Part shown: positions 127 through 35,926 of the stretch, one piece after another
How positions within the stretch are numbered: the stretch's first letter is position 1
How the letters are laid out: each line of letters opens with the position of its first letter
IMG/VR virus record: IMGVR_UViG_3300025451_000033
Coordinates: 1-35,926 of that record
Direction: 5' to 3' (one strand)
Source: a virus
Taxonomy: Duplodnaviria; Caudoviricetes
Length of the DNA stretch: 35,926 nt
Translations under genes and position numbers: made by a program
Notes under the pieces: model-generated
Told to the model about the DNA's origin: nothing
The model's input: the letters and a program-made list of their open reading frames with translations, nothing else
The model's database searches: none

Positions 127-199
127 ATTCACACCAACCGGACTAATTTACTATCTGATAAAATCAAAGAAATAGATCGCATGGCATATCGACTTATAT

Positions 200-286
200 T
201 GTTAACGAGCGTTAACGAGCGTTAACGAATAATATTAAGCGTTAACGGCTAATAATCACAAAACATTTAACTAGTGCCGTTAACGG
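200..286. promoter_or_regulatory. Array of five GTTAACG/CGTTAACG palindromic boxes, probable operators
   Basis: GTTAACG at 201, 211, 221, 241 and 279, the first three at 10-bp period, directly upstream of the RHH-containing ORF at 297. Confidence 0.6.
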
Positions 287-296
287 AAAGAATATC

Positions 297-1070
297 ATGA
301 AAGAAACAAATACCAATTCAGTAGTAGGATTTAGACCTAACTCAGAAGCTCTTGATAGTTTAAATGCTTGGATTAAAGCTGAGGTAGCAGGCGGAACATT
401 TAAGAATAAATCAGAATCGCTTAACAGTATCATTTCATGCTTTAGTGGAAATCTTTCGACTAAGAGATTCTTTATCTATCAGATAACAAATAATGTAAAT
501 GGAAAGGTTTATTTTGGGCAAACGGTTAATCCAGTAAATAGATTTCATACTCATATGAAACATGGTAACGCTTTACTATCAGCAGACGTTGAGGAGTATG
601 GTAAGAATGCATTTGTATTTGAAATTCTTTCTATTGTTGATACTCAAGCAAAAGCTGATGAGCAAGAAACAGAGTTGATTCAATTCATGTTTAAAACAAA
701 TAAAGAGTATTCGTATAACATTCATCCTGGTAATGGAAGTGCTGATACCATTTGCAAAGAAGAGAGTGAAACTATAAGTAAGGAATATGACCGTCCGGTA
801 TCATTTAGGATAAAAGGTGATCTTGATAAGAAAATAGATGCTATGGTTTTGAATACAAAGAAATCAAGAACAGATGTTTTTAATTATGTGGTAGGGAAGG
901 GGATTGAGTTTTTAGAAAGTAATGATAAGAAAGATGACCTAATCATTAATGAATATCAGCAAAAGCTTCTCTTAGCCTGGTCTCAACTCCCTAAGAACCT
1001 TGGTAAATCCCCTAGTGAGCTTTTAAATTCTATGATTGAACAGTGTTTAAAGAACAAGGTTAGTTTATGA
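297..1070 (+). CDS. RHH / GIY-YIG endonuclease / RHH fusion protein
   Basis: GIY-YIG motif FIYQITNNVNGKVYFGQT..R...H, later E and YN. RHH-like segments VVGFRPNSEALDSL..NKSESLNSII and VSFRIKGDLDKKIDAMVLNTKKSRTDVF. Confidence 0.75.
   Translation: MKETNTNSVVGFRPNSEALDSLNAWIKAEVAGGTFKNKSESLNSIISCFSGNLSTKRFFIYQITNNVNGKVYFGQTVNPVNRFHTHMKHGNALLSADVEEYGKNAFVFEILSIVDTQAKADEQETELIQFMFKTNKEYSYNIHPGNGSADTICKEESETISKEYDRPVSFRIKGDLDKKIDAMVLNTKKSRTDVFNYVVGKGIEFLESNDKKDDLIINEYQQKLLLAWSQLPKNLGKSPSELLNSMIEQCLKNKVSL
778..883. repeat. Direct repeat, right flank copy 1 (identical to 35821..35926)
   Basis: gtaaggaatatgaccg...gatgtttttaa is identical to the last 106 nt of the window. Confidence 0.95.
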
Positions 1071-4365: not shown

Positions 4366-4645
4366 ACGACCACTGAACAACTACCTGAACGCCCCGTAAA
4401 ACGCCCGTCTCGCCTCAGAAAAAGTTTGACATCAAAAACCTTTCGTGCCGAACGATTGGTCAATCAACCTTAGCAAAAAAATCTTTGCCAAAGGTCGCCA
4501 CCAAAAGCCCTTTGGCTCGCGAGGTTCCCAACGCTACGCCAGAACGCCGCGAAGGCGCGCATTGACCCGTCCAGCCTCAGCGTTGCCATTCTATGAGAGC
4601 GAGAGCGGCTCTACGTGCCAACGAGCCGGCGGTTATATATGTTTC

Positions 4646-5161
4646 ATGAAGCAATTAACTCTCTATATATTGGTAAATAAGATTAGCGGAAGAACGTATA
4701 TTGGACAAACTAGACAAGTGCTAAAAAGAAGAATGAGGGAACATAAGTTCGATGCGACTAGAAGTGACCTTCCGTTATATGCCGATATTAAGAAATTAGG
4801 CTTCTCATCATTTGCTAGCCTGACAGTAGCTGTTTTCTCAACGAGAGAAGAGGCGTGGAAAGCCGAGAAAGAGTTAATATCCTTTTATAAAAAGCTAGGA
4901 TTGCAACTGTATAACATGTCAGAAGGCGGAAGGGGACCAACAGGTGTTAAAAGAAGTGAGATTAGCATAGCAAAAATGAGCGGCGAAAATCATGGTGCTG
5001 TAAAATTAACAGATATTCAAGTGGATGAAATTAGAAAACACGTTGATGATGGAATTCTTAGTTATTTAGAAATTGCGATTAAGTATAAAATATCTAGACA
5101 GTACGTAAGGAAGCTACACTTGAGAACGTCCCGCAAAAATCGCACTTGTGTGATGGGGTAA
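4646..5161 (+). CDS. GIY-YIG homing endonuclease with C-terminal HTH
   Basis: LYILVNKISGRTYIGQT..RMREH, EKELI, YNMSEGG, GENHGAVKLT plus HTH. Likely leaderless start at 4646 (TATATA 6 nt upstream). Confidence 0.88.
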   Translation: MKQLTLYILVNKISGRTYIGQTRQVLKRRMREHKFDATRSDLPLYADIKKLGFSSFASLTVAVFSTREEAWKAEKELISFYKKLGLQLYNMSEGGRGPTGVKRSEISIAKMSGENHGAVKLTDIQVDEIRKHVDDGILSYLEIAIKYKISRQYVRKLHLRTSRKNRTCVMG

Positions 5162-6199
5162 GGTGTGATACGGCGCCAGAGAGCTGGTCTTTGTTGCGTG
5201 GTTCTCCTTACGGATGAGCCCAAAAGAAAACCCCATCAATAAATATTGATGGGGTTCGGGAACACTGACCAGCGGTTTTTCTAATTCCTCGAACTTCATC
5301 TGAAGTTCATCAAGCTCCGCCATACGAAGCTCGATTTCCTTTTTACGAGCTTTGGTAGCGGTCTTTTTCTCTTCCTTCAAGTCTTCTTGTTCGCTCATTA
5401 CATCCTCTAGCGTCATCGCTTCTTCTTCTTGCTCGCCTTCGGAAGAGTCCGGCGCTTGCTCTTCTTCGTCGTCTTGATCGCTGGTTCCTTCTTTCTCCCA
5501 CTTGATCAAGTCTTCGTCATTGAGCTTTTTGTTTCGTGCATCAAGCTCGCGAGTTTTAACCGTCTCTCGCAAGCTCATGGGGCGAAGCGTTCGGATAAAC
5601 TTCTCCTTATCGCTCAAGTCGTTTACGTGACCTTTGCCCCAATCCAACGCCGATTTCATAGCAGCGTTGAAATCGTTCTCTCGGTTCTTGCTCAAATACC
5701 AAACATGAGTGAATTTGATGGAGCGCCAAAACTCCTTAAAGTTATCAGCCGATGCGCCGTAATAGCGAATCATATTGATAACCTCATCTTCGGACTTTTG
5801 ACCATCACCCCTTGCGGCTCGCGTCTTTGCTTCGGGCGCTTCTCCACCAGAAGAATTCAGAACGTAACCTGAAATCTGCGAGTAGTTGTTCAAGCGAGGT
5901 TCTTTATCAGAACCAGAAGCGCGAAGTTGTTGTTTTGCTTCGTAGCGAAGTTCGCTCCAAGCATCGAGAATTGCGTTTTTCTGGTCTTCATTTGCCAGAT
6001 ATTCCGCCGTTCCCTTCTTCGGGTTAAAACCCTCAGCGAGCTTGAAATCGTCATCATTAGGAGTTGTTTTCTTGATGATGTCGAAAAGCTCTTTTGCAAG
6101 GTCGTTGCTCAACCATCGGTGTGACTTGTCGCCGCAACCTTTGATGAGATCCGAAAGAGCACTCTTGATGATGTTTTGCGATGCGATTTTGAGAGCCAT
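5114..6199 (-). CDS. Hypothetical protein with acidic/coiled-coil C-terminus; true end probably near 5280
   Basis: 361-codon ORF with its own promoter and more GC-rich codons; the last ~50 codons run through a terminator. Confidence 0.7.
   Translation of the reverse strand: MALKIASQNIIKSALSDLIKGCGDKSHRWLSNDLAKELFDIIKKTTPNDDDFKLAEGFNPKKGTAEYLANEDQKNAILDAWSELRYEAKQQLRASGSDKEPRLNNYSQISGYVLNSSGGEAPEAKTRAARGDGQKSEDEVINMIRYYGASADNFKEFWRSIKFTHVWYLSKNRENDFNAAMKSALDWGKGHVNDLSDKEKFIRTLRPMSLRETVKTRELDARNKKLNDEDLIKWEKEGTSDQDDEEEQAPDSSEGEQEEEAMTLEDVMSEQEDLKEEKKTATKARKKEIELRMAELDELQMKFEELEKPLVSVPEPHQYLLMGFSFGLIRKENHATKTSSLAPYHTLPHHTSAIFAGRSQV
5222..5256 (-). terminator. Intrinsic terminator inside the 3' end of ORF 5114..6199
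   Basis: AACCCCATCAAT-attt-ATTGATGGGGTT then TTCTTTT on the minus strand. Confidence 0.75.
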
Positions 6200-6300: not shown

Positions 6301-6340
6301 ATTCTAAGCCCCTTCCTAAATTAGTTCAAGAACTATTTTC
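6301..6340 (-). promoter_or_regulatory. Promoter TTGAAC-17-TAGAAT with the AAA(T)TAGTTC upstream box shared with the 2.0 and 2.3 kb promoters
   Basis: -35 at 6329..6324, -10 at 6306..6301; the box occurs as an inverted pair overlapping the -35. Confidence 0.65.
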
Positions 6341-6527
6341 GTTCGCTGGTGATTTTGTTCAACCCCCAAAATTCCCGCCTTTAAAGGATCGCGCAACACG
6401 CGTTGCACGTCTTTACAAGCTCATCAAGAACTTTCTTCGTGAAAATCATCAACGCCGAAGACCTACACTATCCTACATTGGTTGCTAACGCATACACCAT
6501 CCCCAACGCATATCAATACATCATCGT

Positions 6528-8535: not shown

Positions 8536-10038
8536 ATGAAATACAAATTTCTAAACTCAACTCATGAAAAGTATTGTTACTCAAAGTTGGAAAAGCTCGA
8601 ATGTCTTTATGTTGGCAATGAAGAGATAAAAGAAAACGCTAGTATGTTCATTAAGCAGAACTTAAATGAGTCAAGAGAAAGCTACAAAGATCGTCTTTCT
8701 AATGTCTATTATCGAAACTACTTTGCTCAGATAATCAATTACTATTCTTCTTGCTTGTTCTCAAAAGGGTTTTCTGTTTCCCAAGATTCTAGCGATGAGT
8801 TTTATACTAGCTTTGAAAAGAATTGCGATAGACGAGGGACTTCGTTACAAGATTTCATTCAAAAAGTATTTCTTAATTCTCTTGTTTATGGAAAAAGCTA
8901 TGTAATGTATGACTTTCCTAAGTCGTCCAATCCCCAATCACTACTAGAGCAAGCTGTTTCAGGAGACCTAAACGCTTATCTTTGTCCAGTAAAGAATGAG
9001 TGTTTAATAAATTGGAGCAAAGATTCAATAACAAAAGACTTTAAATTCTGTGTGATTAAGAACGTGTATTGCGAACGAGAGTCAATCGACTCGCCTCTTG
9101 ATACGGAAACACAAGAATTTTCTGTTTGGACAATGGAATCAGGATTTGCAAAACTATCAACCTACAAAATAACATATAAAAAGCACAATCCCCCTAGCGA
9201 CAATACAGAAATCCCTTTGGTTAGCGAAGTAACAACTTCATTTGCAAGAATTCCTATTCTTTGTCTTAGTCTTGGCGGAACAAATTCAATCGGCTCAATG
9301 ATTGCCGGACCTTGCGAAGAACTATTCGCTCGTCACTCAACTCTTATAAACGCGCAGAACCGTTCATTAAATGCTGTTCGTTATTATAAAATGGGTCCTG
9401 TTGTTACTTCTGACGATTCCATTCCTTCCCATAGTGAAGACGAAGAACGCGGAAAGAAAAACTTACAAGAAGTTCAAGATGCTAACGCTGTTGTTATTGG
9501 TACCAACGATGAGCTTGGATATCTTGAACCTAACGGATCTTGTTATTCCATTGTAGATACTCAGCTAAAAGATTTGGTTGATGAGATTTATCGTCTAGCA
9601 AATCTTTCTTCACAAAGCGTAAGTTCATCAAATAAAAGCGTTGGTCGAAGCGGGCTTTCAAAAGTAATGGATGCTAGCACAACGGCTAATGTTCTTAGAA
9701 GCTATGGTCAAAGCGTTCGTCAGTTATTATCAAAGCTATTAGAGCAAATCTCACAAGCCAGAAGCGAGGATGTTAGCTTTGTTGTTTCTGGTCTTGATGA
9801 TTTTGATATGCATAGCCGAGAACTGTTACTAGGATACTCAACTGAAATAAACAACCTTGATATTCCCAGTGCTACATTTAAGTCAATCTATCTTGATAAA
9901 ATGTCTAAGATTGTTCTTGACAAACTAGATCCCGATACTTCTTCAAAGATTAGCGAGGAGATAAAAGCTAGTGTTAGTTTAAATGGTCATGAACCTAGAG
10001 AGTCTTTCGTCATTACAGAATCAAATCAAGGCGAATAA
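8536..10038 (+). CDS. Portal protein
   Basis: 500 aa following terL; ESRESYKDRL..YYRNY, LVYGKSYVMYDFP and SGLSKVMD are typical of SPP1/DUF4055-like portals. Confidence 0.85.
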   Translation: MKYKFLNSTHEKYCYSKLEKLECLYVGNEEIKENASMFIKQNLNESRESYKDRLSNVYYRNYFAQIINYYSSCLFSKGFSVSQDSSDEFYTSFEKNCDRRGTSLQDFIQKVFLNSLVYGKSYVMYDFPKSSNPQSLLEQAVSGDLNAYLCPVKNECLINWSKDSITKDFKFCVIKNVYCERESIDSPLDTETQEFSVWTMESGFAKLSTYKITYKKHNPPSDNTEIPLVSEVTTSFARIPILCLSLGGTNSIGSMIAGPCEELFARHSTLINAQNRSLNAVRYYKMGPVVTSDDSIPSHSEDEERGKKNLQEVQDANAVVIGTNDELGYLEPNGSCYSIVDTQLKDLVDEIYRLANLSSQSVSSSNKSVGRSGLSKVMDASTTANVLRSYGQSVRQLLSKLLEQISQARSEDVSFVVSGLDDFDMHSRELLLGYSTEINNLDIPSATFKSIYLDKMSKIVLDKLDPDTSSKISEEIKASVSLNGHEPRESFVITESNQGE

Positions 10039-10041
10039 TAA

Positions 10042-10554
10042 ATGGACGAAGAAGAGAAGAAAATAACAAGTGAGTTAAAAGCTCAAGAGAAAAAGTCCAA
10101 AAAAGAACTTTTGCTTTTGCTTTTATTCTTGCTTGGTTCCTCAAAGCCTCAAGCGTACAAGCTAGAAAAGCTTAGAACTAAAATAGCCACTCTTCCAAGT
10201 GTTGGTGCAAATGTGTTTGAGCAAGATTCAAAAACGCTAAGCGTGACCAATCTTCCTAAGATAGCCTCAAACCTTTTGGTTCTTGCTCAAGCAAAAGCTC
10301 TAGCAACTACTTCAAAAGTCGATCTTGTAAAGGCAGTAATTCCACGTGTAGAAGTGATAACATCAACGGAAATATTCTCAGGTTATAACAATGCTGTTGT
10401 TTTGAACTTACCAAAAGAATCACTGGTTCGTTACTCAGCAATGCTAGATGCTTGTCCAAGATGTCTTCCATTGAATGGAAATATCTATAAAATAAGCGAA
10501 GCTCCATCCCTGCCTCAGCATCCGCGCTGTAAATGCGTGTATGTCCCTTTATGA
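10042..10554 (+). CDS. Minor head morphogenesis protein (Mu F / SPP1 gp7-like, short)
   Basis: DACPRCLPLNG..PQHPRCKC motif. Confidence 0.8.
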   Translation: MDEEEKKITSELKAQEKKSKKELLLLLLFLLGSSKPQAYKLEKLRTKIATLPSVGANVFEQDSKTLSVTNLPKIASNLLVLAQAKALATTSKVDLVKAVIPRVEVITSTEIFSGYNNAVVLNLPKESLVRYSAMLDACPRCLPLNGNIYKISEAPSLPQHPRCKCVYVPL

Positions 10555-14505: not shown

Positions 14506-15967
14506 ATGGCTATATTAGATCCGTCAAACGCAACTCCGAAACTTGCTATTAATGTAAGTTTCCAAAAAGGTCCGTCTTCAAGTGGTAGCTCTGATTATTC
14601 TATTCTATTAATCGGAAATAAATTAAGCTCAGGAACAGGGACCGATGCAACTCTTTATGGTCCTCAAGATATGAGTTCTGATAGCGATGCGGCTGGTTTA
14701 TTTGGGCGCGGAAGCGAATTAGCTCTTATGGTCAAAGACTGTTTAGCTAAAAACAAAAAATCAACTGTCTATGCAATGAGCGTTGCTGAGGGTGTTTCTT
14801 CTACTGTCGCAACTGGTACAATTACCTTTACTTCTGCTGCTACTTCTAACGCTACTGTTACTGTTTGGGTTGGTTCAAAAACAGTAAGCTTTGGTGTTGT
14901 ATCAGGTGACGCAATTGCTGTTCAAGCCGCTGCTTGTGCTGCTGCTATCACTGCTAATGTTGATTTACCTGTTACAGCTTCAGCTTCTCTAGGTGTTTGC
15001 ACAGTAACATCTAAAAATAAAGGTCTAAGATCAAATCTTATAAAGATTTCAGCCAAAGCTTCTAATAGCTATGGCACCACGATTAGCCCTTTAACAATGA
15101 CCGCGCTAACAGGTGGAACTGTTCAGGATTCACTAGCCGCCGCTTTAGCTGTGATTGTTGGACAGCGTTTTTACTCAATCGTTGTTGCTCAGGATGACGC
15201 TACTAACTTAGGCTTGCTAAAAACTCATATCGCTAGCTTAGAAGATCCAATGATTGGACTTCGCCAGCGTGGTTTTTGTGCTAGCGTTGATACCGCTGGT
15301 AACGCAACTACTGTTGCTATCGGTCTTGATGACGAAAGACTTTGCCTTGTTTGGCAAGGTGGAAGCGATTGCTTACCGCGTGAATTAGCTGTTGATGTTG
15401 CTTCACAGATTTGTCTTGCTGAAATCGGAGATATTCCTGTTTGTAACTTTAATGGTCTTCAGCTAAGTCTTCCTGTTCCGCGTTCAAAAACCAAACCCAC
15501 ACCCGCACAAATCAAAGCTGCTTTAAACAATGGCATTTCCCCTATTGATTGTGATGTTGTTTGGTAAATGTTTTCTAGTAAAGGCAATTACCACTAGATC
15601 GACAAATGGTCTCGGAGCTTCTGATTATCGAGTTCGTGATCTTCACAAAGTATTTATCTGTGATAAACTAGCTGATGATCTTGCTGCTAGATATTATGAT
15701 TTCTTCCAAGGTAAAAACGTAGCGGACGATCCCCTTCCTAATCAGCCCCCCGTTCCTGGTGCCGTTTGCCCGCGAGACGTTAAGGCTATGATTTTCTCTG
15801 TGCTCGATACTTACTCAGCTCGTGGATTAATTGAGCAGGTGCAAGCATCAAAAGACCAGCTAGTTGTTACTCGCCCTTCTGGCAGCAACGCTCTAGAGGT
15901 TACACTTAATGTTGATGTTATCAACGTTCTTGATCAAGTTTCCATTCAACAGAATCAGGTAGGATAA
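14506..15967 (+). CDS. Tail sheath protein (Mu gpL-like), split by a +1 frame break near 15555-15567
   Basis: ILLIGNK, AAGLFGRGSELALM, TVTSKNKG and ALNNGISP lie in 14506..15567; the continuation GKCFLVKAITT..DYR..DVINVLDQ lies in 15530..15967. Confidence 0.85.
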
Positions 15968-22788: not shown

Positions 22789-23286
22789 TTAACGAGATTT
22801 GAAGTTGATAATTCTTGAAACAGTGGGTTGTGTAATATCAATAAGAGCTGCTATCTCGTACTGAGTAAAGCTTTTGCTTTTGTACATTGCACGGATTAGA
22901 GTTACTTCGTTATCTTTGATTGTGCAATGACCGTTTTTCTCTCCTGAAATCTTGTAACCTATTCCTTTGAGACCTTGCCCGCCATCATTGATGTTTAGTA
23001 CGGTTGATTTGGAGTTTCTAAAAGCGCTGATTAATTTGGTTTCTGCTGATTCGGCTTCTGCTCGTGTAGCAAAACGAGCAACTTCTTCAATGTGCAAATA
23101 AGAATCAGGAGTTGTTGATATTTCCTGGTAAAGAGGATGGCTTGAGGTTTTCTTTGAGTTAGCAGCGCTTTTGTGAGCAGAGAAACGCTGTTGTAAAGTA
23201 AGACCAGTAACACCAACATAGATGGAATTAGTAAAGTTGTTGGTAATTACATAAGTTGAGAAAGTTTTCTTAGTCGATTTGATCAT
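22789..23286 (-). CDS. GIY-YIG homing endonuclease with C-terminal HTH, antisense within the baseplate operon
   Basis: TYVITNNFTNSIYVGVT..QRFSAH, ETKLI, LNINDGG, GEKNGHCTI plus HTH. Confidence 0.88.
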   Translation of the reverse strand: MIKSTKKTFSTYVITNNFTNSIYVGVTGLTLQQRFSAHKSAANSKKTSSHPLYQEISTTPDSYLHIEEVARFATRAEAESAETKLISAFRNSKSTVLNINDGGQGLKGIGYKISGEKNGHCTIKDNEVTLIRAMYKSKSFTQYEIAALIDITQPTVSRIINFKSR

Positions 23287-23401
23287 TTTGTTTTCCAATT
23301 GTTTAAAGTGTTTGGTCTTATTAGCATTAGACCTACATACTTATATGTTGTTATGCATACTTTCATGGAAAATATTTAAACTAATTTCTTGACATGTAGA
23401 A

Positions 23402-29344: not shown

Positions 29345-30084
29345 TGTTCTTCTCATCAACTTTCTTAAACTGTCAAAAAAATGTATTCACGGTTGCTTTT
29401 TCTCCGGTGAGTTTGGGAACTTCAAAACTTCGTTTCTGGACTCGCCCTGAATCTCCATCTTGGACAACCTCCGCTCGATCTGTTTTAGAAACAGGAACGG
29501 GAGTTATTGGTTCAAAAGATGATGAATCCGGAAATGCATTCCATCTTATTCAAGCAACTTCTGGAATTCGACCAACGCGTAAAGCGAATGGCGGTTTTCT
29601 CTGCAATGCGACGGCATTATACACCAACGCTGCTATTGGAGCTTGGTCAGGGGATTTTGACGTTTGGGCAGTTGTTAAATACAACACCATGCAAAACGAT
29701 TATCGTGTAATGGAAGTAAATTCAGATACAGGACTTGGTCTTTTGCAGGCAACACCCGATAAGGTAAGGTTTTCTGTAGCAAATAGCACAGCTCCTTATG
29801 GTTTAGCCTCTGCTACTGCTCTCTCTTCCATTCATATTTTGCATGGTTCAAGAGTAGGAACAACGGCAACCATACAAATTGATAGCGCTACGGCGGCAAC
29901 TCAAACGGTTACGGGTTCTGCGATTGCAAATACTCCGCTTTATGTCGGTTTATCTTATTTGAGCGGAGTAGGGGCAAACGTTGATCATCATGAGATTGCG
30001 GTATGTGCGGGTCTTACTTCCGGCGAGCGTTCAAATATGAATACTTATTTCGCTAACAGATTAAGTTCTGGAATATATTATTAA
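29344..30084 (+). CDS. Putative receptor-binding / LamG-like beta-sandwich protein
   Basis: DESGNAFHLIQAT..RPT and LTSGERSNMNTYF motifs, typical of fibre-tip lectin-like domains. Confidence 0.55.
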   Translation: MFFSSTFLNCQKNVFTVAFSPVSLGTSKLRFWTRPESPSWTTSARSVLETGTGVIGSKDDESGNAFHLIQATSGIRPTRKANGGFLCNATALYTNAAIGAWSGDFDVWAVVKYNTMQNDYRVMEVNSDTGLGLLQATPDKVRFSVANSTAPYGLASATALSSIHILHGSRVGTTATIQIDSATAATQTVTGSAIANTPLYVGLSYLSGVGANVDHHEIAVCAGLTSGERSNMNTYFANRLSSGIYY

Positions 30085-30107
30085 GAATAGATAAAAAAAG
30101 AGGAAAA

Positions 30108-30359
30108 ATGGATCCAATGATATTCAAAGTCTTAGCAAGTGTTTTCGGCTTAGCGATTGGTATCATTGGGTACTTTGTTAATAAGATGATAACAGATCAA
30201 AAGAAAGAGACGCAAGATATGAAAGAGTCCATCAAAGATATTGAAAAAGAAGTAAAAGAACTACAGATTCAATTAGCCTCTAACTCTTCTACGACTAGAG
30301 AAAAGTTAGAGTCAATATCCGAGAAACTTTGCGCTTTGGCTGGTATTAAAAAGAAGTAA
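30108..30359 (+). CDS. Single-TM coiled-coil protein (holin/XhlA-like)
   Basis: N-terminal TM VLASVFGLAIGIIGYFV then coiled coil; GAGG RBS. Confidence 0.55.
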   Translation: MDPMIFKVLASVFGLAIGIIGYFVNKMITDQKKETQDMKESIKDIEKEVKELQIQLASNSSTTREKLESISEKLCALAGIKKK

Positions 30360-30365
30360 AGGTTG

Positions 30366-30779
30366 TTAATTTAGCCTTAGAACAATCGCCATTATTTCGG
30401 ATAGCTTAAGACCAAAGTCTTTTGCTAGCTGAGTCGTGGGAACACCAGCTCTGTCAAGTTCTGCGATTTGGATATCTCTAGAGTATTCTGGTGAATTTTT
30501 TCTAGCTTGAAGCTTTAACAGTCGCGTTTTCTCTTGTTCTGTTCTCTCCTGCCTGGTAGATCGAATCATAAATTTATCAATATCGCCAGGAATGCTAGGT
30601 TTTACTCTAAAAAAGACAAGATCTGAAATAGCAGAAACTCCAATATTAAACCTATCGGAGATATTTTGAATCGTAAATTCCATTATGTGATAATGAACGC
30701 GAATCGATATTATCTCTTCTGTTGATAGTAATGCTATTTTGTTATGCTTTCTCTGCGGTTTTCGCTTTTTGGCTTTCAT
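30366..30779 (-). CDS. Double-HTH DNA-binding protein
   Basis: LSTEEIISIR..FTIQNISDRFNIGVSAISDLV and PTTQLAKDFGLKLSEI; likely start MKAKK at 30779. Confidence 0.65.
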   Translation of the reverse strand: MKAKKRKPQRKHNKIALLSTEEIISIRVHYHIMEFTIQNISDRFNIGVSAISDLVFFRVKPSIPGDIDKFMIRSTRQERTEQEKTRLLKLQARKNSPEYSRDIQIAELDRAGVPTTQLAKDFGLKLSEIMAIVLRLN

Positions 30780-30804
30780 GTTTTTCTTTTGTGGGGTCGA
30801 ATAA

Positions 30805-30875
30805 ATTAAAATAGCAATCAAGGTCATTGATTGCTAAGTTAATTCTTTTCAAGGAAGAAGGTCTATGGTCCTTCA
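30805..30875 (-). ncRNA. Putative small RNA or attenuator leader, unit 3
   Basis: TTGAGA-17-CATATT promoter, 5' hairpin GAAGG/CCTTC, 3' hairpin TAGCAATCAA/TTGATTGCTA plus TTTT. Confidence 0.45.
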
Positions 30876-30914
30876 ATTTAATATGTCTTTATTGCTAGAA
30901 AATCTCAAGCCATA

Positions 30915-31027
30915 TAAATAAAAAATCAACCTAATTGGAGTAGGTTGATTTTTCATGCTAATACAATGGACTTAAACAATTTCAAAACATCAAACGAAGA
31001 AAACAAGCGCTATCTAGGTCGCTCGTA
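30915..31027 (-). ncRNA. Putative small RNA, unit 2
   Basis: TTGACT-17-TATATA promoter, 5' hairpin ACGAGCG/CGCTTGT, 13-bp terminator stem 30921-30953. Confidence 0.5.
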
Positions 31028-31121
31028 CTTAATATATAACACAGTGTTTAGCTTTAGTCAATTGTTTATTTAAATCAAATGTGTGAAATTCAATTAAATT
31101 CGCTATTGGGAAGATGTTTTA

Positions 31122-31206
31122 CAAAAAGAAAAGAACCGATAGGGTTATTTATCGGTTCTTTTGGTGTGTTGTCTCAGTATTTAAGGAGGGATAATCAGTC
31201 CCTACC
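31122..31206 (-). ncRNA. Putative small RNA (or 3' UTR), unit 1
   Basis: ATATTAA box, 5' hairpin AGGGA/TCCCT, CCTCCTTA, 13-bp terminator stem 31129-31162 plus T-tract. Confidence 0.4.
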
Positions 31207-31220
31207 TTAATATATCGTTA

Positions 31221-31628
31221 TTATTTTGATTTCTTGGAAAGTCTATAATTGAAAACACCATTTCCAAAATCACTATCTACTCTTACTTGTTTGGTAAATC
31301 CAATTGATTGTCTAACGCTGTCACCTATGTCCATTGCTTCGTCTTTTGTTTTCACACGAGCAAGAACAGTCCAATCACCATCAAAAGGAGGATACATGCA
31401 AGGGTCTTTAGCCCAATTTTGAAGGTTAAAATAACTATCCCATACATGTTTATCTAATGAAACGTTGGAATAGATATGCTCTGAGTTGTCGTTTTTACGA
31501 ATGAATACACGGTTTTTATATTCACCAACGGTTCTTAGGCAAAGATAAATCGTGTATCCTGGATTTTTATCCGAGTCTCCGAAGCATTCCTCTACTTTAG
31601 CGGCGTAAATCATTTGTAAGTAATTCAT
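31221..31628 (-). CDS. Hypothetical protein, possibly degenerate GIY-YIG fold
   Basis: ATGA-coupled to the polymerase-like gene; YTIYLC..KNRVFI and WTVLARVKTKDEAM resemble the three GIY-YIG proteins in this window. Confidence 0.55.
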   Translation of the reverse strand: MNYLQMIYAAKVEECFGDSDKNPGYTIYLCLRTVGEYKNRVFIRKNDNSEHIYSNVSLDKHVWDSYFNLQNWAKDPCMYPPFDGDWTVLARVKTKDEAMDIGDSVRQSIGFTKQVRVDSDFGNGVFNYRLSKKSK

Positions 31629-32965
31629 TCTGATAATTCCTTTTCTGTTATGTTAATGTTATGGATGCCAGAAGATTCTCTAGCAATTTCAATTAGTTTA
31701 GGGTGCAATGGAGAGTTTGTTATAAATCCATCGTGGCAGAGAACGCCAACCCCTACACCATAGCTTGGGGCTGCTGCTACCATTGTCGATATGATTCTAA
31801 CTTCCATCCCCTGCAAGATATGAGCGGCTAACTTTCTTTTCATTTGGTTTTCGCATCCATTAAATTGGGTTAGTTCAAGTTTCTTATCAGCCATATTGGT
31901 AATATATTTACCATAGATTGTTGTTTTTGCTTTGTGATCGCTCAACCATTTCTCGCTGACTATTATTTCTAGCCATTGGTCAAGAGAGGAGCGTAATGGT
32001 TTTATTGATTTACAAAACGCTTGCAAACAAGCGTCAAATTGATCTTCTGTGTGATTGGGATAAATAGATCTTAGTGCCTTACCGGCATCCTTGAATTGCA
32101 TTTGACTCATTTTGGGAAATATTTCACCACCAAAAAGAGTTGAGTAAAAGAGAATTTTGAACATTCCCTTGTCATTGAAGCAATTTTGGATTGTTTTTCT
32201 AAAGCAATCGTCATTGATGTATGTTTCTAGCCATTCGCATTTGATGTTATCAGCGTTAAAACAATGAAGAAGACAAGCTGCTTGAGCAGAAACAAGATCA
32301 TAATTATGATTTGTAAGGTTCTTTCCAGTTAGTATCCTTCCTCTGTACTTCGCTTCTAACTGTTGTGCTCCGCCATTCTCAAAAAGACGACCAGTTCTTG
32401 CTATTTTATAAGAAGAAACATAAGATCCTGTTTGACCCATTGATCTAATGTGAGAAATATTGTGTCTATTGCTTGTCTTTTGGTGTTTTATTTCTTCGTA
32501 GATAGCTAAAACTTCCTCATAATTGACATCTTGAGGGATTAATGATTCTACTGCTGATAGTAATAGTTTAGGTTGAGGGTGTTTGTTCTCATCAATTTTA
32601 GATGTAATTGGTTTGTAAAGTTTCCCAGTGTTAGAATCAACGATTTGCTCGTTTAAGTTATCATCGTAAGATAGAAAAGCGTCTATTATACTAGAATCCG
32701 CTGCAAATTCTCTACATTCATTGTCGAAAAAAGAGTGTTCTTGTATTTTGAACAGTCCAGATTCTTCTATTTCCTTGTATGTTTCGCTTGATTTGCCGTC
32801 AAAATGATCTTGAATAAAAGTAAAAGGAACAGGTGTAAATTCATTTCCAGACCTTAAACTAGAACAAATAACATGACCTAAAAACTTAGTTATTTTCTTG
32901 CTCCCCTGTTGCCTTAAGAAAGAAAAAGCACTTTTTGTGGTTGGTTTATGGGAAATATAAGACAT
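31625..32965 (-). CDS. Minimal family-A-like polymerase (TV-Pol-like), probable replication protein
   Basis: RTGRLF, motif A NYDLVSAQ, motif B-like R..K...YSTLFGG, HILQGME, motif C LCHDG; no exonuclease or helicase domain; GAAAGG RBS. Confidence 0.75.
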   Translation of the reverse strand: MSYISHKPTTKSAFSFLRQQGSKKITKFLGHVICSSLRSGNEFTPVPFTFIQDHFDGKSSETYKEIEESGLFKIQEHSFFDNECREFAADSSIIDAFLSYDDNLNEQIVDSNTGKLYKPITSKIDENKHPQPKLLLSAVESLIPQDVNYEEVLAIYEEIKHQKTSNRHNISHIRSMGQTGSYVSSYKIARTGRLFENGGAQQLEAKYRGRILTGKNLTNHNYDLVSAQAACLLHCFNADNIKCEWLETYINDDCFRKTIQNCFNDKGMFKILFYSTLFGGEIFPKMSQMQFKDAGKALRSIYPNHTEDQFDACLQAFCKSIKPLRSSLDQWLEIIVSEKWLSDHKAKTTIYGKYITNMADKKLELTQFNGCENQMKRKLAAHILQGMEVRIISTMVAAAPSYGVGVGVLCHDGFITNSPLHPKLIEIARESSGIHNINITEKELSE

Positions 32966-33004
32966 ATAGATAATACCTTTCGTGATTGCTTGGTAAGTTG
33001 TAAC

Positions 33005-33033
33005 AAGGACCCCTGCTAAGGGTCCTTTTTTTT
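33005..33033 (+). terminator. Plus-strand terminator antisense to the RHH-polymerase operon
   Basis: AAGGACCC-N7-GGGTCCTT plus T-run; the nearest + strand gene ends 2.6 kb upstream. Confidence 0.8.
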
Positions 33034-33042
33034 ATTCTCTTA

Positions 33043-33213
33043 TTAGTATTTCGGAATATTGTCTTGACTCATCGCAAGCTTGAGAAGGTCAATGGTTACT
33101 TGTGATACTGACATGCTTTGAGAGTCTGATATGTTCTTTATTTTCTGAAAAGTTTCCTCATCTAATCTAAAGATAATCGTTTTCGGTTTTGTTGCTTTTC
33201 TAGTTGAGCTCAT
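33043..33213 (-). CDS. CopG-like ribbon-helix-helix protein, 56 aa (not in ORF track)
   Basis: MSSTRKATKPKTIIFRLDEETFQKIKNISDSQSMSVSQVTIDLLKLAMSQDNIPKY*; AGGA RBS. Confidence 0.8.
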   Translation of the reverse strand: MSSTRKATKPKTIIFRLDEETFQKIKNISDSQSMSVSQVTIDLLKLAMSQDNIPKY

Positions 33214-33249
33214 GTTGTTTTCCTGTTCGTCAAGTGTTGTATTACAACT

Positions 33250-33280
33250 ATATCATAAGATCGTGATATGCATAGGTCGA
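33250..33280 (-). promoter_or_regulatory. Promoter TCGACC-17-TATGAT overlapped by inverted repeat ATATCA-N8-TGATAT
   Basis: -35 at 33280..33275, -10 at 33257..33252, palindrome 33250..33269. Confidence 0.6.
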
Positions 33281-33289
33281 GATCTTTTT

Positions 33290-33725
33290 TTAGCAGGGCA
33301 GGGGAGGCGCCCGGCGCCCAACATGTATGCTCAAGAAGAGTGTATGTCTTTTATAGGTGAGAGTATAGGTAAGAGTATGAGTAAGATATTGTTTATTGTA
33401 GATAGTTACAAAAAAGTCAAAAAAAATACAGAATACAGATATGAGTATGAGTATATAAGATATCTATTAGTATCTACTTCTATTAATCTTCTTAGCTACT
33501 TCTTCTATACTTCTACTCTCTTCTTCTACCTGTCTAAACCTGTCTAGGGGTTAGTATGTCCATTTCCTAAATATTTAGTTTCACCAACCACCTTGTTTTA
33601 CCTTACCAAACTCACTTTTGCTGTCCAAAAAAGATAGGTAGCACCAGACATTAAATCAACCTATAAACATCCTTCGTTCGTCCCTCCAAAATCCCCCGAC
33701 CCGACCCCCAGCCCAACCCCAAACG
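33290..33725. other. Candidate replication origin region
   Basis: GC-rich GGCGCC repeat, purine-rich tract switching to pyrimidine-rich at ~33460, CCTGTCTA x2, five C-runs at 33693..33720. Confidence 0.4.
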
Positions 33726-33759
33726 CACAAATTAAATTATAATATCCAAGCATAACGTT

Positions 33760-34077
33760 ATGCAATCCATCATCCCTAATTTCACAATCCCAACAAAGGA
33801 ACAATTTCCAAAGATGACAAGAAAAAACATTCGTCTTGTTTATCAGTCCCTACAAAATCTAGGAATGGTAACAATCACAAACTCTTTTATGAGCTTAAAG
33901 ACTTATCAAAACTTTCATGATCATCTTGTTAGAATAAAGCAAATTCAACCCAACCAATATTTTCAATGGGGACCTGCTCCTATCTCCATCCAAAATATCA
34001 CAAACAACCATATTATCTTTCAAGGGTATAATTCCAAAGGTCAAACACTCCTCCTTACCCTCACCAATCTTTATTAA
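33760..34077 (+). CDS. Hypothetical protein
   Basis: 105-codon ORF with no recognised motif. Confidence 0.5.
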   Translation: MQSIIPNFTIPTKEQFPKMTRKNIRLVYQSLQNLGMVTITNSFMSLKTYQNFHDHLVRIKQIQPNQYFQWGPAPISIQNITNNHIIFQGYNSKGQTLLLTLTNLY

Positions 34078-34205
34078 CGCCCCTTTAAAGCGATTTTCAT
34101 TCCTACTCCTATAGCTGAATCCACCAAACCCACCAAAGCCCCTTAAAAGCCAACTAAGGCGTTCTAATTAAACTTCACAAACAACGCATATCAACACATA
34201 CTAAT

Positions 34206-34367
34206 ATGAACAGATTATGCGTAACAATAGACGAAACTTCTCTTTCCCAGCTAGAAGAACTTACTAACCAGTCTCAGATCAAAATATCAAAATCAGCAAT
34301 GATTAGATTTGTTATTGAGCAGGCTTATAAACAATATCAAGAGTCTCTCAAAACAAAAGGTAAATAA
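34206..34367 (+). CDS. Ribbon-helix-helix protein, 53 aa (not in ORF track)
   Basis: MNRLCVTIDETSLSQLEELTNQSQIKISKSAMIRFVIEQAYKQYQESLKTKGK*; TAATG-coupled to the next gene. Confidence 0.8.
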   Translation: MNRLCVTIDETSLSQLEELTNQSQIKISKSAMIRFVIEQAYKQYQESLKTKGK

Positions 34368-34807
34368 TGGACTTTATAAATCTTCTATTAAATATCAATG
34401 TTCTTCTTCATTTACTAGGAATAGCTTCAATTACTTATTTAGTTAGGACGATAGTAGAATATTTTATCCCCTCAGTGGTCTCTAAGAACTTTTACAAAAA
34501 TCTCGCACTTCCCATTTTTCCTATAATCGTGTCTATAGCCTTTTTCAATGTACTTCCTATCGCTCTCCCATTCGATATCACTCAAACCCCGGCAAGGGTC
34601 CTTTACAGCCTAACAATAGGTCTTCTTTCTTCTCAGACCTATAGGATGATTCGTGCTCAGATAAAGGCTAAGTTTCCTTCTTCTGATTTGCCTGATATCC
34701 CAGATCTTTCTATTCAGGATCTTGAAAGGTTACATGAGGAAACTAATCCTAGTCCTAAATCAACTAACCCAACCCTACCAGATCCTCCTACTAAGAATCC
34801 TACCTAA
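34367..34807 (+). CDS. Three-TM membrane protein, holin-like
   Basis: Three hydrophobic segments and a charged, Pro-rich tail. Confidence 0.6.
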   Translation: MDFINLLLNINVLLHLLGIASITYLVRTIVEYFIPSVVSKNFYKNLALPIFPIIVSIAFFNVLPIALPFDITQTPARVLYSLTIGLLSSQTYRMIRAQIKAKFPSSDLPDIPDLSIQDLERLHEETNPSPKSTNPTLPDPPTKNPT

Positions 34808-35003
34808 GGGAATAATAGATAAAACAGTGTTAAATATTGATTGGTATTGAGTATTTAAGCGAATATTGCACCTTATAGCTATGCAAATTTTGCGTAGTAA
34901 GATGCGCTTTGTGCTCACAGTCCATAGTTTATCTATTAGAATATACACAATTCTAGTATAATAGCGTGTTTTTGCACTATTTGCCATTATTCTACTCATA
35001 AAT

Positions 35004-35059
35004 AGCGTTGTTATGTTCATGATTTGCCAAAGAATAAGCGTTGTTATGTTCAAGATTTG
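35004..35059. repeat. 23-bp direct repeat x2 (33-bp period)
   Basis: AGCGTTGTTATGTTCA(T/A)GATTTG at 35004 and 35037. Confidence 0.8.
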
Positions 35060-35236
35060 TTCATAATTTAGCGTTTAGCCGTGTTTTCTCTTTCAAAATC
35101 CCTAAAATCATTCATAAAACCATAGCAAAATGCCCCACTCATTACCCCTTAGTAATCAATCATTATTTCATCTATTAGCTATTGACAATCTCAAATCAAC
35201 ATCTAATCAACCATCTTTATTATCGAATTTCAAGAA

Positions 35237-35362
35237 ACCCGCATAAAACGCTTCTTTTACCCCCTAGAGAAAATAGAATTGTTGGTTAGGAATTAGGGTT
35301 AGTAATAGGCTAAAATAGGGTTCATGTTCGTATGCGAATACGTGGATGGTACGAAGGTTCCC
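35237..35362. repeat. Direct repeat, left flank copy 2
   Basis: Identical to 1..126. Confidence 0.95.
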
Positions 35363-35651
35363 TTTGCAACGGTCTGGACTAAATCACTATGTTCAGGTTT
35401 AGCGAAGGTTGTTTTCAAAAGTAGCGTTTGGTCAAGTATGTGTTATGATTGTTGTGTGTGGTTCTTGAAAACAATTCAAGTCGTTGTAATAATAGTAGTT
35501 GATTTTTGTTTTCAAATGATTGTTTTCAAATAAAATAGTCAAGATGATAGGTTTTTGATTGATTTATTTGAATACAAACATTTGTTTTCAATATTTATAT
35601 GGTAATAAGTTTGTATTCAAATAGTACAACAGATCTCAAGAGGAAATAAAT

Positions 35652-35926
35652 ATGAATAGTTTCGATGATGATAATGATAATGATGGTGATATGTTTGGTT
35701 CTGATTTAACAGACTTTAATCCTAATCTTGATAAGGAGGAAATTGAAAACACACTAAAAGAAATACATGATAAAGCTTATACTGGCGAGGATAAGACTTT
35801 AGACAGTAAAGCTAAGGTTCGTAAGGAATATGACCGTCCGGTATCATTTAGGATAAAAGGTGATCTTGATAAGAAAATAGATGCTATGGTTTTGAATACA
35901 AAGAAATCAAGAACAGATGTTTTTAA
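35652..35926 (+). CDS. Alternative allele of ORF 297..1070 (acidic N-terminus plus the same RHH), truncated by window end
   Basis: GAGG RBS; MNSFDDDNDNDGDMFGSDLTD...AKVR joins in frame to KEYDRPVSFRIKGDLDKK. Confidence 0.8.
   Translation, partial: MNSFDDDNDNDGDMFGSDLTDFNPNLDKEEIENTLKEIHDKAYTGEDKTLDSKAKVRKEYDRPVSFRIKGDLDKKIDAMVLNTKKSRTDVF
35821..35926. repeat. Direct repeat, right flank copy 2
   Basis: Identical to 778..883. Confidence 0.95.

Follow-up and report, generated by a model that had tools for sequence, protein, structure and literature searches.

The polymerase gene and its predicted fold

The viral record IMGVR_UViG_3300025451_000033 (IMG/VR; Caudoviricetes) is a stretch of 35,926 nucleotides (nt), here called the window. 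Near one end, on the minus strand, lies an intact gene with an ATG start that encodes a 446-aa protein. The protein is predicted to consist of a winged helix and a minimal family-A polymerase, and a candidate replication origin is situated roughly 500 nt upstream of the gene (Table 1). We read the gene as a one-protein replication initiator that binds this origin and lays a short primer for the host replisome, with a probability of about 0.6.

A sequence-only reading of the window had listed five family-A motifs within the 446 residues. All five are present and in the stated order: TGRL (residues 191-194), YDLVSAQ (222-228), K270..Y274..LFGG (277-280), LQGME (384-388) and CHDG (410-413). Expressed as a pattern, which was composed after the family had been seen, this order occurs in 82/151 family sequences and in none of 200,000 shuffled versions of the protein.

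The right-hand polymerase fold, a condition for the polymerase reading, is borne out by the predicted model and by three fold searches. The AlphaFold2 model, for which the family alignment served as input, has a predicted local distance difference test (pLDDT) score of 94.7 and a predicted template modelling (pTM) score of 0.92. In Foldseek against the PDB, every top match is a family-A DNA polymerase (best E 1.9e-7). With VIA-align, the Klenow fragment is superposed on residues 118-446 at Z 17.2 (285 aligned residues, root-mean-square deviation 4.1). Pol theta (Z 17.1) and pol nu (Z 16.9) score almost the same, versus 13.1 for the mitochondrial RNA polymerase (RNAP) and 12.6 for T7 RNAP. In a search of viral models, the best matches come from Dickeya and Erwinia jumbo phages and are uncharacterised. 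A replication protein of Zamilon, the homologue of the Sputnik V13 TV-Pol, was matched at E 1.2e-6.

At the sequence level, the protein has no match in Pfam, PHROGs or NCBIfam, and a PDB sequence search gave no useful match with either the protein or a 133-row family profile. Comparison by hhalign with the single E. coli Pol I sequence yielded a probability of only 0.9%, though all motifs are collinear. Because sequence-level annotation failed and the hhalign probabilities are low, the fold claim rests on the predicted model.

The N-terminal domain is present as well, but it covers ~100 residues and not the ~150 read earlier; residues ~118-176 form a linker and a short thumb. On residues ~10-108, the structural alignment places some 20 winged-helix chains (MarR, ORC, MotA, ArsR, Z-alpha) with Z 5.3-6.4. 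These scores are each middling, but they are mutually consistent and agree with the helix-helix-helix-hairpin layout. H31, P45 and C84-R85 of this region are conserved in the family alignment. In the model, two thumb helices (149-159 and 165-176), which are short in this protein, precede the hairpin. The ~70 helical residues between the winged helix and the palm would be too few for an exonuclease; none is found in the predicted model, in agreement with the sequence-only reading.

Active site and conservation

The alignment to E. coli Pol I pairs R193 with R668, D223 with D705, Q228 with E710, K270 with K758, Y274 with F762, F278 with Y766, Q385 with Q849, D412 with D882 and G413 with E883. 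The spacing of the motifs is 30/47/142, compared to 37/53/124 in Pol I and 112/94/181 in T7 RNAP. According to passages of PMC3715850, ribonucleotides are kept out by Glu710, which acts as the steric gate and forms a pair with Tyr766; both residues are called universal in family A. In the 446-aa protein this pair is replaced by Gln/Phe, and in the family by Gln or His together with mostly Met: among 133 relatives, the Glu710 equivalent is Q in 122 and H in 11, while the Tyr766 equivalent is M in 90, F in 28 and Y in 5. T7 RNAP has Gly542 at the steric gate and Tyr639 in the fingers. The bulky Gln, unlike this Gly, would favour deoxynucleoside triphosphates (dNTPs), and the loss of the Glu710-Tyr766 pair suggests a low fidelity. 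Taken together, the Gln gate and the lost pair would suit a primer-making enzyme better than a replicase or a transcriptase.

The family was collected with a profile of the 446-aa protein and its two nearest relatives. Searched against 1.84 billion representatives, it comprises at least 679 clusters at E <=0.001, and the best 150 of these 679 matches are 269-832 aa long. For the alignment, 133 sequences were drawn from 151, the shortest and longest being omitted. R193, D223, E388 and D412 are invariant (133/133), and K270 is found in 132/133. Fourteen family proteins, including the longest (up to 938 aa), contain no Pfam domain; the search for longer proteins spanned only 1407-4015 aa and is weak.

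The candidate origin

The sharpest G-to-C skew flip of the genome is located at ~33470, 511 nt upstream of the polymerase start codon. AGAGTAT-type repeats occur here on the plus strand and a purine tract on the minus strand (33472-33541). An origin-linked initiator had been one of the earlier suggestions, and it is the one that fares best: the sharpest flip falls inside the region that had been proposed as template (33290-33725), and the link between site and gene is family-wide.

This link was scored in 39 loci, after removal of 11 redundant or short ones. In 23/39 loci the family gene has the locus-best G-to-C flip within 800 nt (3.8 expected), and in 21/39 the best 70-nt purine tract. When one locus was kept per 50%-identity cluster (omitting the window, short loci and a remnant), the flip was found near the gene in 15/27 and the tract in 12/27, with 2.5 expected for each. 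Control long open reading frames (ORFs) scored 11/164 for the flip and 5/164 for the tract, versus 20/33 and 20/33 for the family gene. Gaps of at least 300 nt were compared in the same way: those touching the family gene hold the flip in 9/27 and the tract in 14/27 cases, the other gaps in 2/101 and 5/101 (Fisher 1e-5 and 8e-8, respectively). Since the enrichment persists in the de-clustered loci and the control ORFs and other gaps score lower, neither gaps nor kinship can by themselves account for the association. The scoring of the site was designed after the window and the first loci had been seen; in prophage loci fetched later and independently, the best tract is near the gene in 5/5 full-length cases and in 0/2 cases with a helicase.

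In cyanobacterial members the purine tract is followed by an imperfect palindrome of ~31 nt, often with several copies across the prophage (gaps of L008, L009, L011, L012, L019, L022, L025, L034 and L038-L040). Two further candidates were rejected: profile hidden Markov models and a weight matrix built from relatives do not single out 33290-33725 by a shared sequence motif, and a structured RNA or hairpin finds no support there (folding z 0.22; no Rfam match at E 1).

A prophage slot shared with an origin-binding helicase

Additional loci were fetched by means of a terminase-adjacent gene that is unrelated to replication, yielding 10 of 251 genomes from one cyanobacterial family. One of the ten was already known to carry the polymerase and the other nine loci were counted; the gene-less L060, which starts at a contig edge, was excluded. 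The family gene is present in 6/9 loci, on the non-structural side of the terminase (one copy is cut by the contig end). In 2/9, the same interval is occupied by an origin-binding superfamily 2 (SF2) helicase of the PF02399 family, 663-667 aa in length. These stand-alone helicases are apparently the Rep of the two prophages, L063 and L065. The family gene is absent from the whole genomes of L063 and of L069, the ninth locus. That a different protein of the Rep type can take the slot is the best pointer to function.

The genome and its other features

The source genome is that of a temperate phage with a contractile tail, and its structural genes form a block on the plus strand. The database classes the record as linear and 44% complete. 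The ends of the record overlap, with 1-154 similar to 35237-35390 and 778-883 identical to 35821-35926. In the contig graph of sequencing run X1, possibly the source of the record, one contig passes from 29500-35362 into 1-126, another begins at 778, and the two are bridged by either of two segments, 651 or 458 nt long. The genome is a circle of ~35.0-35.2 kb with a two-allele bubble. The apparent terminal repeats arise because the population contains an early gene in two allelic forms (window 127-777 and 35363-35820). They encode a GIY-YIG domain or an acidic N-terminus, both on the same repressor-like C-terminus (ribbon-helix-helix-type by eye), and each has its own upstream repeats: five copies of GTTAACG at 201-285, or a 30-nt inverted repeat at 35513-35584.

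Since the genome is closed, the absence of a gene carries meaning. No helicase, primase, single-stranded DNA-binding protein (SSB) or Rep was named by Pfam (32 ORFs), PHROGs (15 + 33 ORFs) or NCBIfam (21 proteins). A P-loop scan gave two matches, the terminase and an antisense frame over the baseplate region. The claim that the polymerase is the only replication protein therefore stands for recognisable families; the 361-aa ORF lacks a family assignment. The 361-aa protein has three metagenomic relatives, an acidic coiled-coil tail and a model of pLDDT 55, with no atlas match and no Foldseek match under E 0.001. In run X2, a weakly supported joint skips 4584-5269.

Table 1. Positions of the features discussed (window coordinates unless a locus is given; a point marks features without a single strand)
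Feature	Position	Strand	Basis
Candidate origin: converging purine-rich tracts, AT-rich centre near 33460	33339..33545	.	Skew and tract scans
Gene for the 446-aa winged helix + minimal family-A polymerase	31625..32965	-	ORF, AlphaFold2, fold searches
Predicted N-terminal winged-helix DNA-binding domain, residues ~8-110	32636..32944	-	Structural alignment
Predicted polymerase core: short thumb, R193 hairpin, motif A D223/Q228, fingers K270/Y274/F278, Q385/E388, motif C D412	31628..32614	-	
Shine-Dalgarno-like hexamer GAAAGG, 10 nt 5' of the ATG	32976..32981	-	Sequence
GC-rich hairpin with T run in the leader of the polymerase gene, resembling a terminator on the antisense strand	33005..33027	+	Pattern scan
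135-aa ORF (orf135), 4-nt overlap with the polymerase stop	31221..31628	-	ORF
Hairpin, terminator-like on both strands, ends the polymerase-orf135 unit	31129..31162	.	Pattern scan
361-aa ORF without family assignment	5114-6199	-	ORF
Terminase, portal, capsid, sheath and baseplate genes	~6.5-30.4 kb	+	Pfam/PHROGs
Integrase and resolvase	2.3-4.1 kb		Family matches
PF02399 SF2 helicases	L063:11907-13910, L065:10274-12265		Pfam

The ORF downstream of the polymerase gene, orf135, is likely co-transcribed with it. Its product shares 19-23% identity with the three GIY-YIG domains of the phage (judged by eye) and looks like a degenerate GIY-YIG fold, possibly the fourth in the genome. No convincing family match was found in Pfam, PHROGs or NCBIfam, and nothing marks it as a partner of the polymerase. 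The leader hairpin is positioned 40 nt 5' of the polymerase start; speculatively, an antisense RNA controlling the gene could terminate here. Sigma70-like sites occur at chance level (24 found, 20.7 expected).

Elsewhere in the genome, three GIY-YIG homing endonuclease genes are found within 35 kb (297-1070, 4445-5161 and 22789-23298). The tail sheath is encoded by two overlapping ORFs (14506-15567 and 15530-15967) that match the N- and C-terminal parts of one PHROG, possibly reflecting a frameshift or a split gene. An exact 21-nt direct repeat (2026-2046 and 2297-2317) flanks the strongest pyrimidine tract of the genome (2083-2152). Its second copy overlaps the resolvase stop, and a third copy (81%) is found at 6322-6342, upstream of the 361-aa ORF. 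These repeats are possibly recombination sites or a second origin-like element.

Distribution of the family

The scans recovered 29 loci in genomes, 13 distinct ones in viral contigs and 5 distant ones in metagenomes; besides these five, the metagenomes yielded only the window itself and a second assembly. No close relative of the phage was found among the viral contigs when these were searched with the polymerase, the capsid and the 361-aa protein. Many of the loci are cyanobacterial prophages, and others come from deltaproteobacterial, myxobacterial, Rhodothermales and further genomes.

The neighbours of the family gene were screened in 41 loci (772 ORFs, all checked for P-loops and ~200 by Pfam). 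Integrase clusters were found in 8 and 7 loci, and a serine recombinase cluster in 3. A link to D5 helicases, brought up in the sequence-only reading as frequent among TV-Pols, is not seen: no D5 helicase occurs in the window or among the neighbours screened. In L041, L042 and L045 the family gene and, two or three ORFs downstream of it, DnaB and PolA belong to one run of genes on the same strand, and in L042 DnaG follows further along. In L034, a tail-sheath N-terminus is joined in frame to the C-terminal 120 residues of the polymerase (8954-10390); this chimera is likely a deletion junction.

A search of plasmids gave two matches, in Calothrix and Synechocystis. In the 13.7-kb Calothrix plasmid, the family gene spans the start of the record. 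Two small ORFs appear Rep-like by eye, and Pfam named no other Rep among the 13 ORFs scanned. Relatives are also encoded by phages of 140-265 kb that infect Microcystis, Erwinia, Dickeya and Vibrio. In the Microcystis phage Ma-LMM01 the relative is gp030 (E 6.6e-39), the only match of the profile in that genome, and its gene adjoins an IS605-type transposase; gp134, the other IS605-adjacent candidate, proved to be DnaG. Passages of PMC5780444 place gp030 in the middle expression class of 162 genes, as are the primase and the DNA polymerase.

Proposed mechanism and alternatives

Building on the computed fold, conservation, site linkage and slot exchange, we infer a course of binding, opening, priming and hand-over. 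The predicted winged helix would first bind the origin duplex at 33339-33545, as the fold and the family-wide adjacent site suggest. Subsequently, the AT-rich, strand-asymmetric centre would open and the Pol I-type site would start a primer de novo, by analogy with CCPol-MP, whose DNA binding comes from a separate subunit. The host helicase and Pol III would then complete the 35-kb circle; the host replisome is invoked because no recognisable phage helicase, clamp or proofreading domain is present. The bulky Gln at the steric-gate position makes a DNA primer more probable than one of RNA.

Several observations weigh against this initiator. At the site itself, the textbook origin flip has the polarity opposite to G-to-C, and a C-to-G flip of similar size is present at ~35270. 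The strongest purine tract of the window is elsewhere (2083-2152), and the gene-linked tract ranks third. Among relatives, the position of the site varies between upstream and downstream of the gene, which limits the reading, and 7/27 clusters show neither flip nor tract. The 31-nt palindromic box is clade-specific and missing from the window; sequences beyond those used for training show no enrichment of it near the gene (10/36, 8.2 expected). The sample of the slot test is small and drawn from one host family. There, L069 has neither the gene nor a helicase within the 19.5 kb fetched, and the L065 genome retains a 3' remnant of the family gene beyond the terminase, fused to a sheath fragment. 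In L022 a 253-aa helicase fragment stands beside an intact family gene. In the 33-kb Synechocystis plasmid, a second large ORF, Rep-like by eye, neighbours a split copy of the family gene. Three large phages with annotation were examined and encode their own primase or helicase, so the family gene is not always the sole replication gene. Residues 1-110 of the 361-aa protein also show weak winged-helix-like structural matches, in a low-confidence model. At the level of the enzyme, Klenow E710Q is a slow mutator (passages of PMC3715850). Finally, CCPol needs a separate MP subunit to prime, according to passages of PMC7581432.

The last point leads to the alternative that survives best, although we consider it unlikely: an origin-binding initiator or accessory polymerase that does not prime, in which the winged helix recruits the host helicase and primase and the core only extends primers made by the host, or nicks and gaps. 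CCPol alone is primer-dependent and requires MP (passages of PMC7581432), and no conserved small partner gene was found among the neighbours of the family gene. In L041/L042 and in large phages, the relative has DnaG, DnaB and PolA of the same genome as neighbours, and a repair role has been proposed for divPolA2, a sister family (passages of PMC11348598). On the other hand, the active site is strictly conserved in small prophages without a recognised primase, the fused DNA-binding domain could stand in for MP, and the gene exchanges its slot with another Rep type.

Less probable still is a strand-displacing replicase that primes itself and needs no host Pol III to copy the entire genome. The protein has all palm and finger motifs with DNA-polymerase-like spacing, it is the sole polymerase gene in a closed circle, and TV-Pols were proposed as primase-polymerases (PMC2579912). 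Yet the lack of a proofreading domain, the short thumb and the lack of a recognised helicase, clamp or SSB are a poor fit to a 35-kb genome, and Gln/Phe takes the place of the Glu710-Tyr766 fidelity pair.

The tiny RNA polymerase that had been offered as an alternative, here one transcribing phage genes from promoters read by the winged helix, is disfavoured by its active-site residues, its motif spacing and the host-type promoters of Ma-LMM01, and is very improbable. The fold does resemble mitochondrial and T7 RNAP, HDG is closer to the HDS of RNAPs than to the HDE of Pol I, and the idea has been raised for divPolA2 (passages of PMC11348598). DNA polymerases nevertheless outrank RNAPs (Z 17.2 versus 12.6), the spacing fits Pol I and not T7 RNAP, and Gln and Phe/Met occupy the positions of Gly542 and Tyr639. 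No repeated promoter family is seen among the window repeats shown, although one late operon would need only one promoter. In Ma-LMM01, the middle and late genes have host sigma70-type promoters and no phage-specific motif (passages of PMC5780444).

Least probable of all is a passenger gene of a mobile element, with replication through another protein (e.g. the 361-aa ORF) or through integration: the patchy spread over unrelated phages, plasmids and islands, the unassigned 361-aa ORF with its weak winged-helix-like matches and the integrase and resolvase of the phage would allow it, but the gene is intact with a flanking site, belongs to the early region, has no transposase close by and keeps a fixed slot in related prophages.

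The gene is real and intact, its kind is known but almost untested, and the context supports the role of an initiator: the skew flip close to the gene, the prophage slot shared with a helicase and the absence of D5 helicases among the neighbours scanned all point that way. A further step, which we put forward tentatively and at somewhat less than even odds, is that the family represents a widespread third kind of primase, a single-chain, origin-specific primase-initiator on a Pol I fold. If true, the fused winged helix replaces the MP subunit of CCPol or the promoter-binding domain of T7 RNAP, and the natural Gln/Met(Phe) pair gives the enzyme its own sugar and fidelity rules. One gene and a purine-tract origin would then define a replicon type that temperate phages have in common with islands and small plasmids and that can trade places with Reps of the origin-binding helicase kind.

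Significance

In many temperate phages and islands no replication gene can be recognised, a gap that a family of at least 679 clusters could fill. One gene with a 200-nt site also offers a testable minimal unit for the 2008 prediction of self-priming TV-Pols. If a single-chain A-family enzyme does prime, it would bear on the descent of T7-type RNAPs from Pol I-like ancestors, and it could serve primer-free amplification.

Comparison with known systems

A winged-helix-fused minimal PolA as phage initiator was not found described in the open literature, where one of the searches was swamped by unrelated matches. The passages of PMC4889955 make no mention of TV-Pol, and those of PMC8008677 concern a RepA-like winged helix in place of a primase, a different case.

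The best structural matches are E. coli Pol I and T7 DNA polymerase, with which the protein shares the collinear R668/D705/K758/Q849/D882 and a similar spacing. It differs from both in lacking exonuclease domains and in its added winged helix. Compared to E. coli Pol I, Glu710-Tyr766 is changed to Gln-Phe (Gln-Met in most relatives) and HDE to HDG. T7-like RNAPs have the same fold (Z 12.6) and a small residue after the motif C Asp. The 446-aa protein is half their size and lacks the RNAP-length insertions, the steric-gate Gly and the fingers Tyr.

The divPolA2 proteins of barbaviruses and Vibrio phages are accessory to a regular polymerase (passages of PMC11348598). They resemble the 446-aa protein in length (~430 aa), in the N-terminal globular domain, in the lack of an exonuclease and in the run from the Arg hairpin to motif A. 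They are, however, a separate sequence family (hhalign against an AUR84708-type single sequence: 0.7%, E 0.08), with FDE instead of HDG in motif C. The phage genera matched do not overlap, except for different Vibrio phages.

CCPol-MP of SCCmec primes with dNTPs near its origin and was the only TV-Pol tested by then, according to the passages of PMC7581432, and it likewise has an A-family core without exonuclease. CCPol works with the helicase Cch2 and retains the equivalents of Glu710 and Phe762, where the 446-aa protein has Gln228/Tyr274/Phe278. The latter also carries a fused winged helix, and no helicase or conserved small partner is found nearby.

The closest relation is to the TV-Pols, the family to which the sequence-only reading had pointed. 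The family-A fold and the TV-Pol-like minimal core stand: a thumb, an Arg hairpin, two Asp and the fingers Lys, without a nuclease domain. The bihelical thumb N-terminal to the palm is present in a short form, and the hairpin Arg (R193) and both Asp of the RRM palm (D223, D412) are found in 133/133 relatives. Strict membership does not stand, because the RxxxK of the TV-Pol fingers fails. Its Arg is present in only 7/133 relatives, position 266 (K266xxxK270 here) being V in 62, K in 23, E in 13 and R in 7; a conserved Lys/Arg at 256 may substitute for it. No D5 helicase link was found among the neighbours scanned. The tailed-phage initiator slots and the purine-asymmetric site are not described in the main text of PMC2579912. 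That study proposed a TV-Pol subset with an N-terminal globular domain (TV-PolN) that is linked to integrases or resolvases; the phage described here encodes an integrase and a resolvase, and its winged helix may correspond to TV-PolN. The domain was predicted there as all-helical, unlike the alpha/beta winged helix of the present model. A possible link is offered by Ma-LMM01, a phage listed in PMC2579912, which carries the family member gp030. The protein is a TV-Pol-like variant, resembling the subset with an N-terminal domain that was predicted in 2008.

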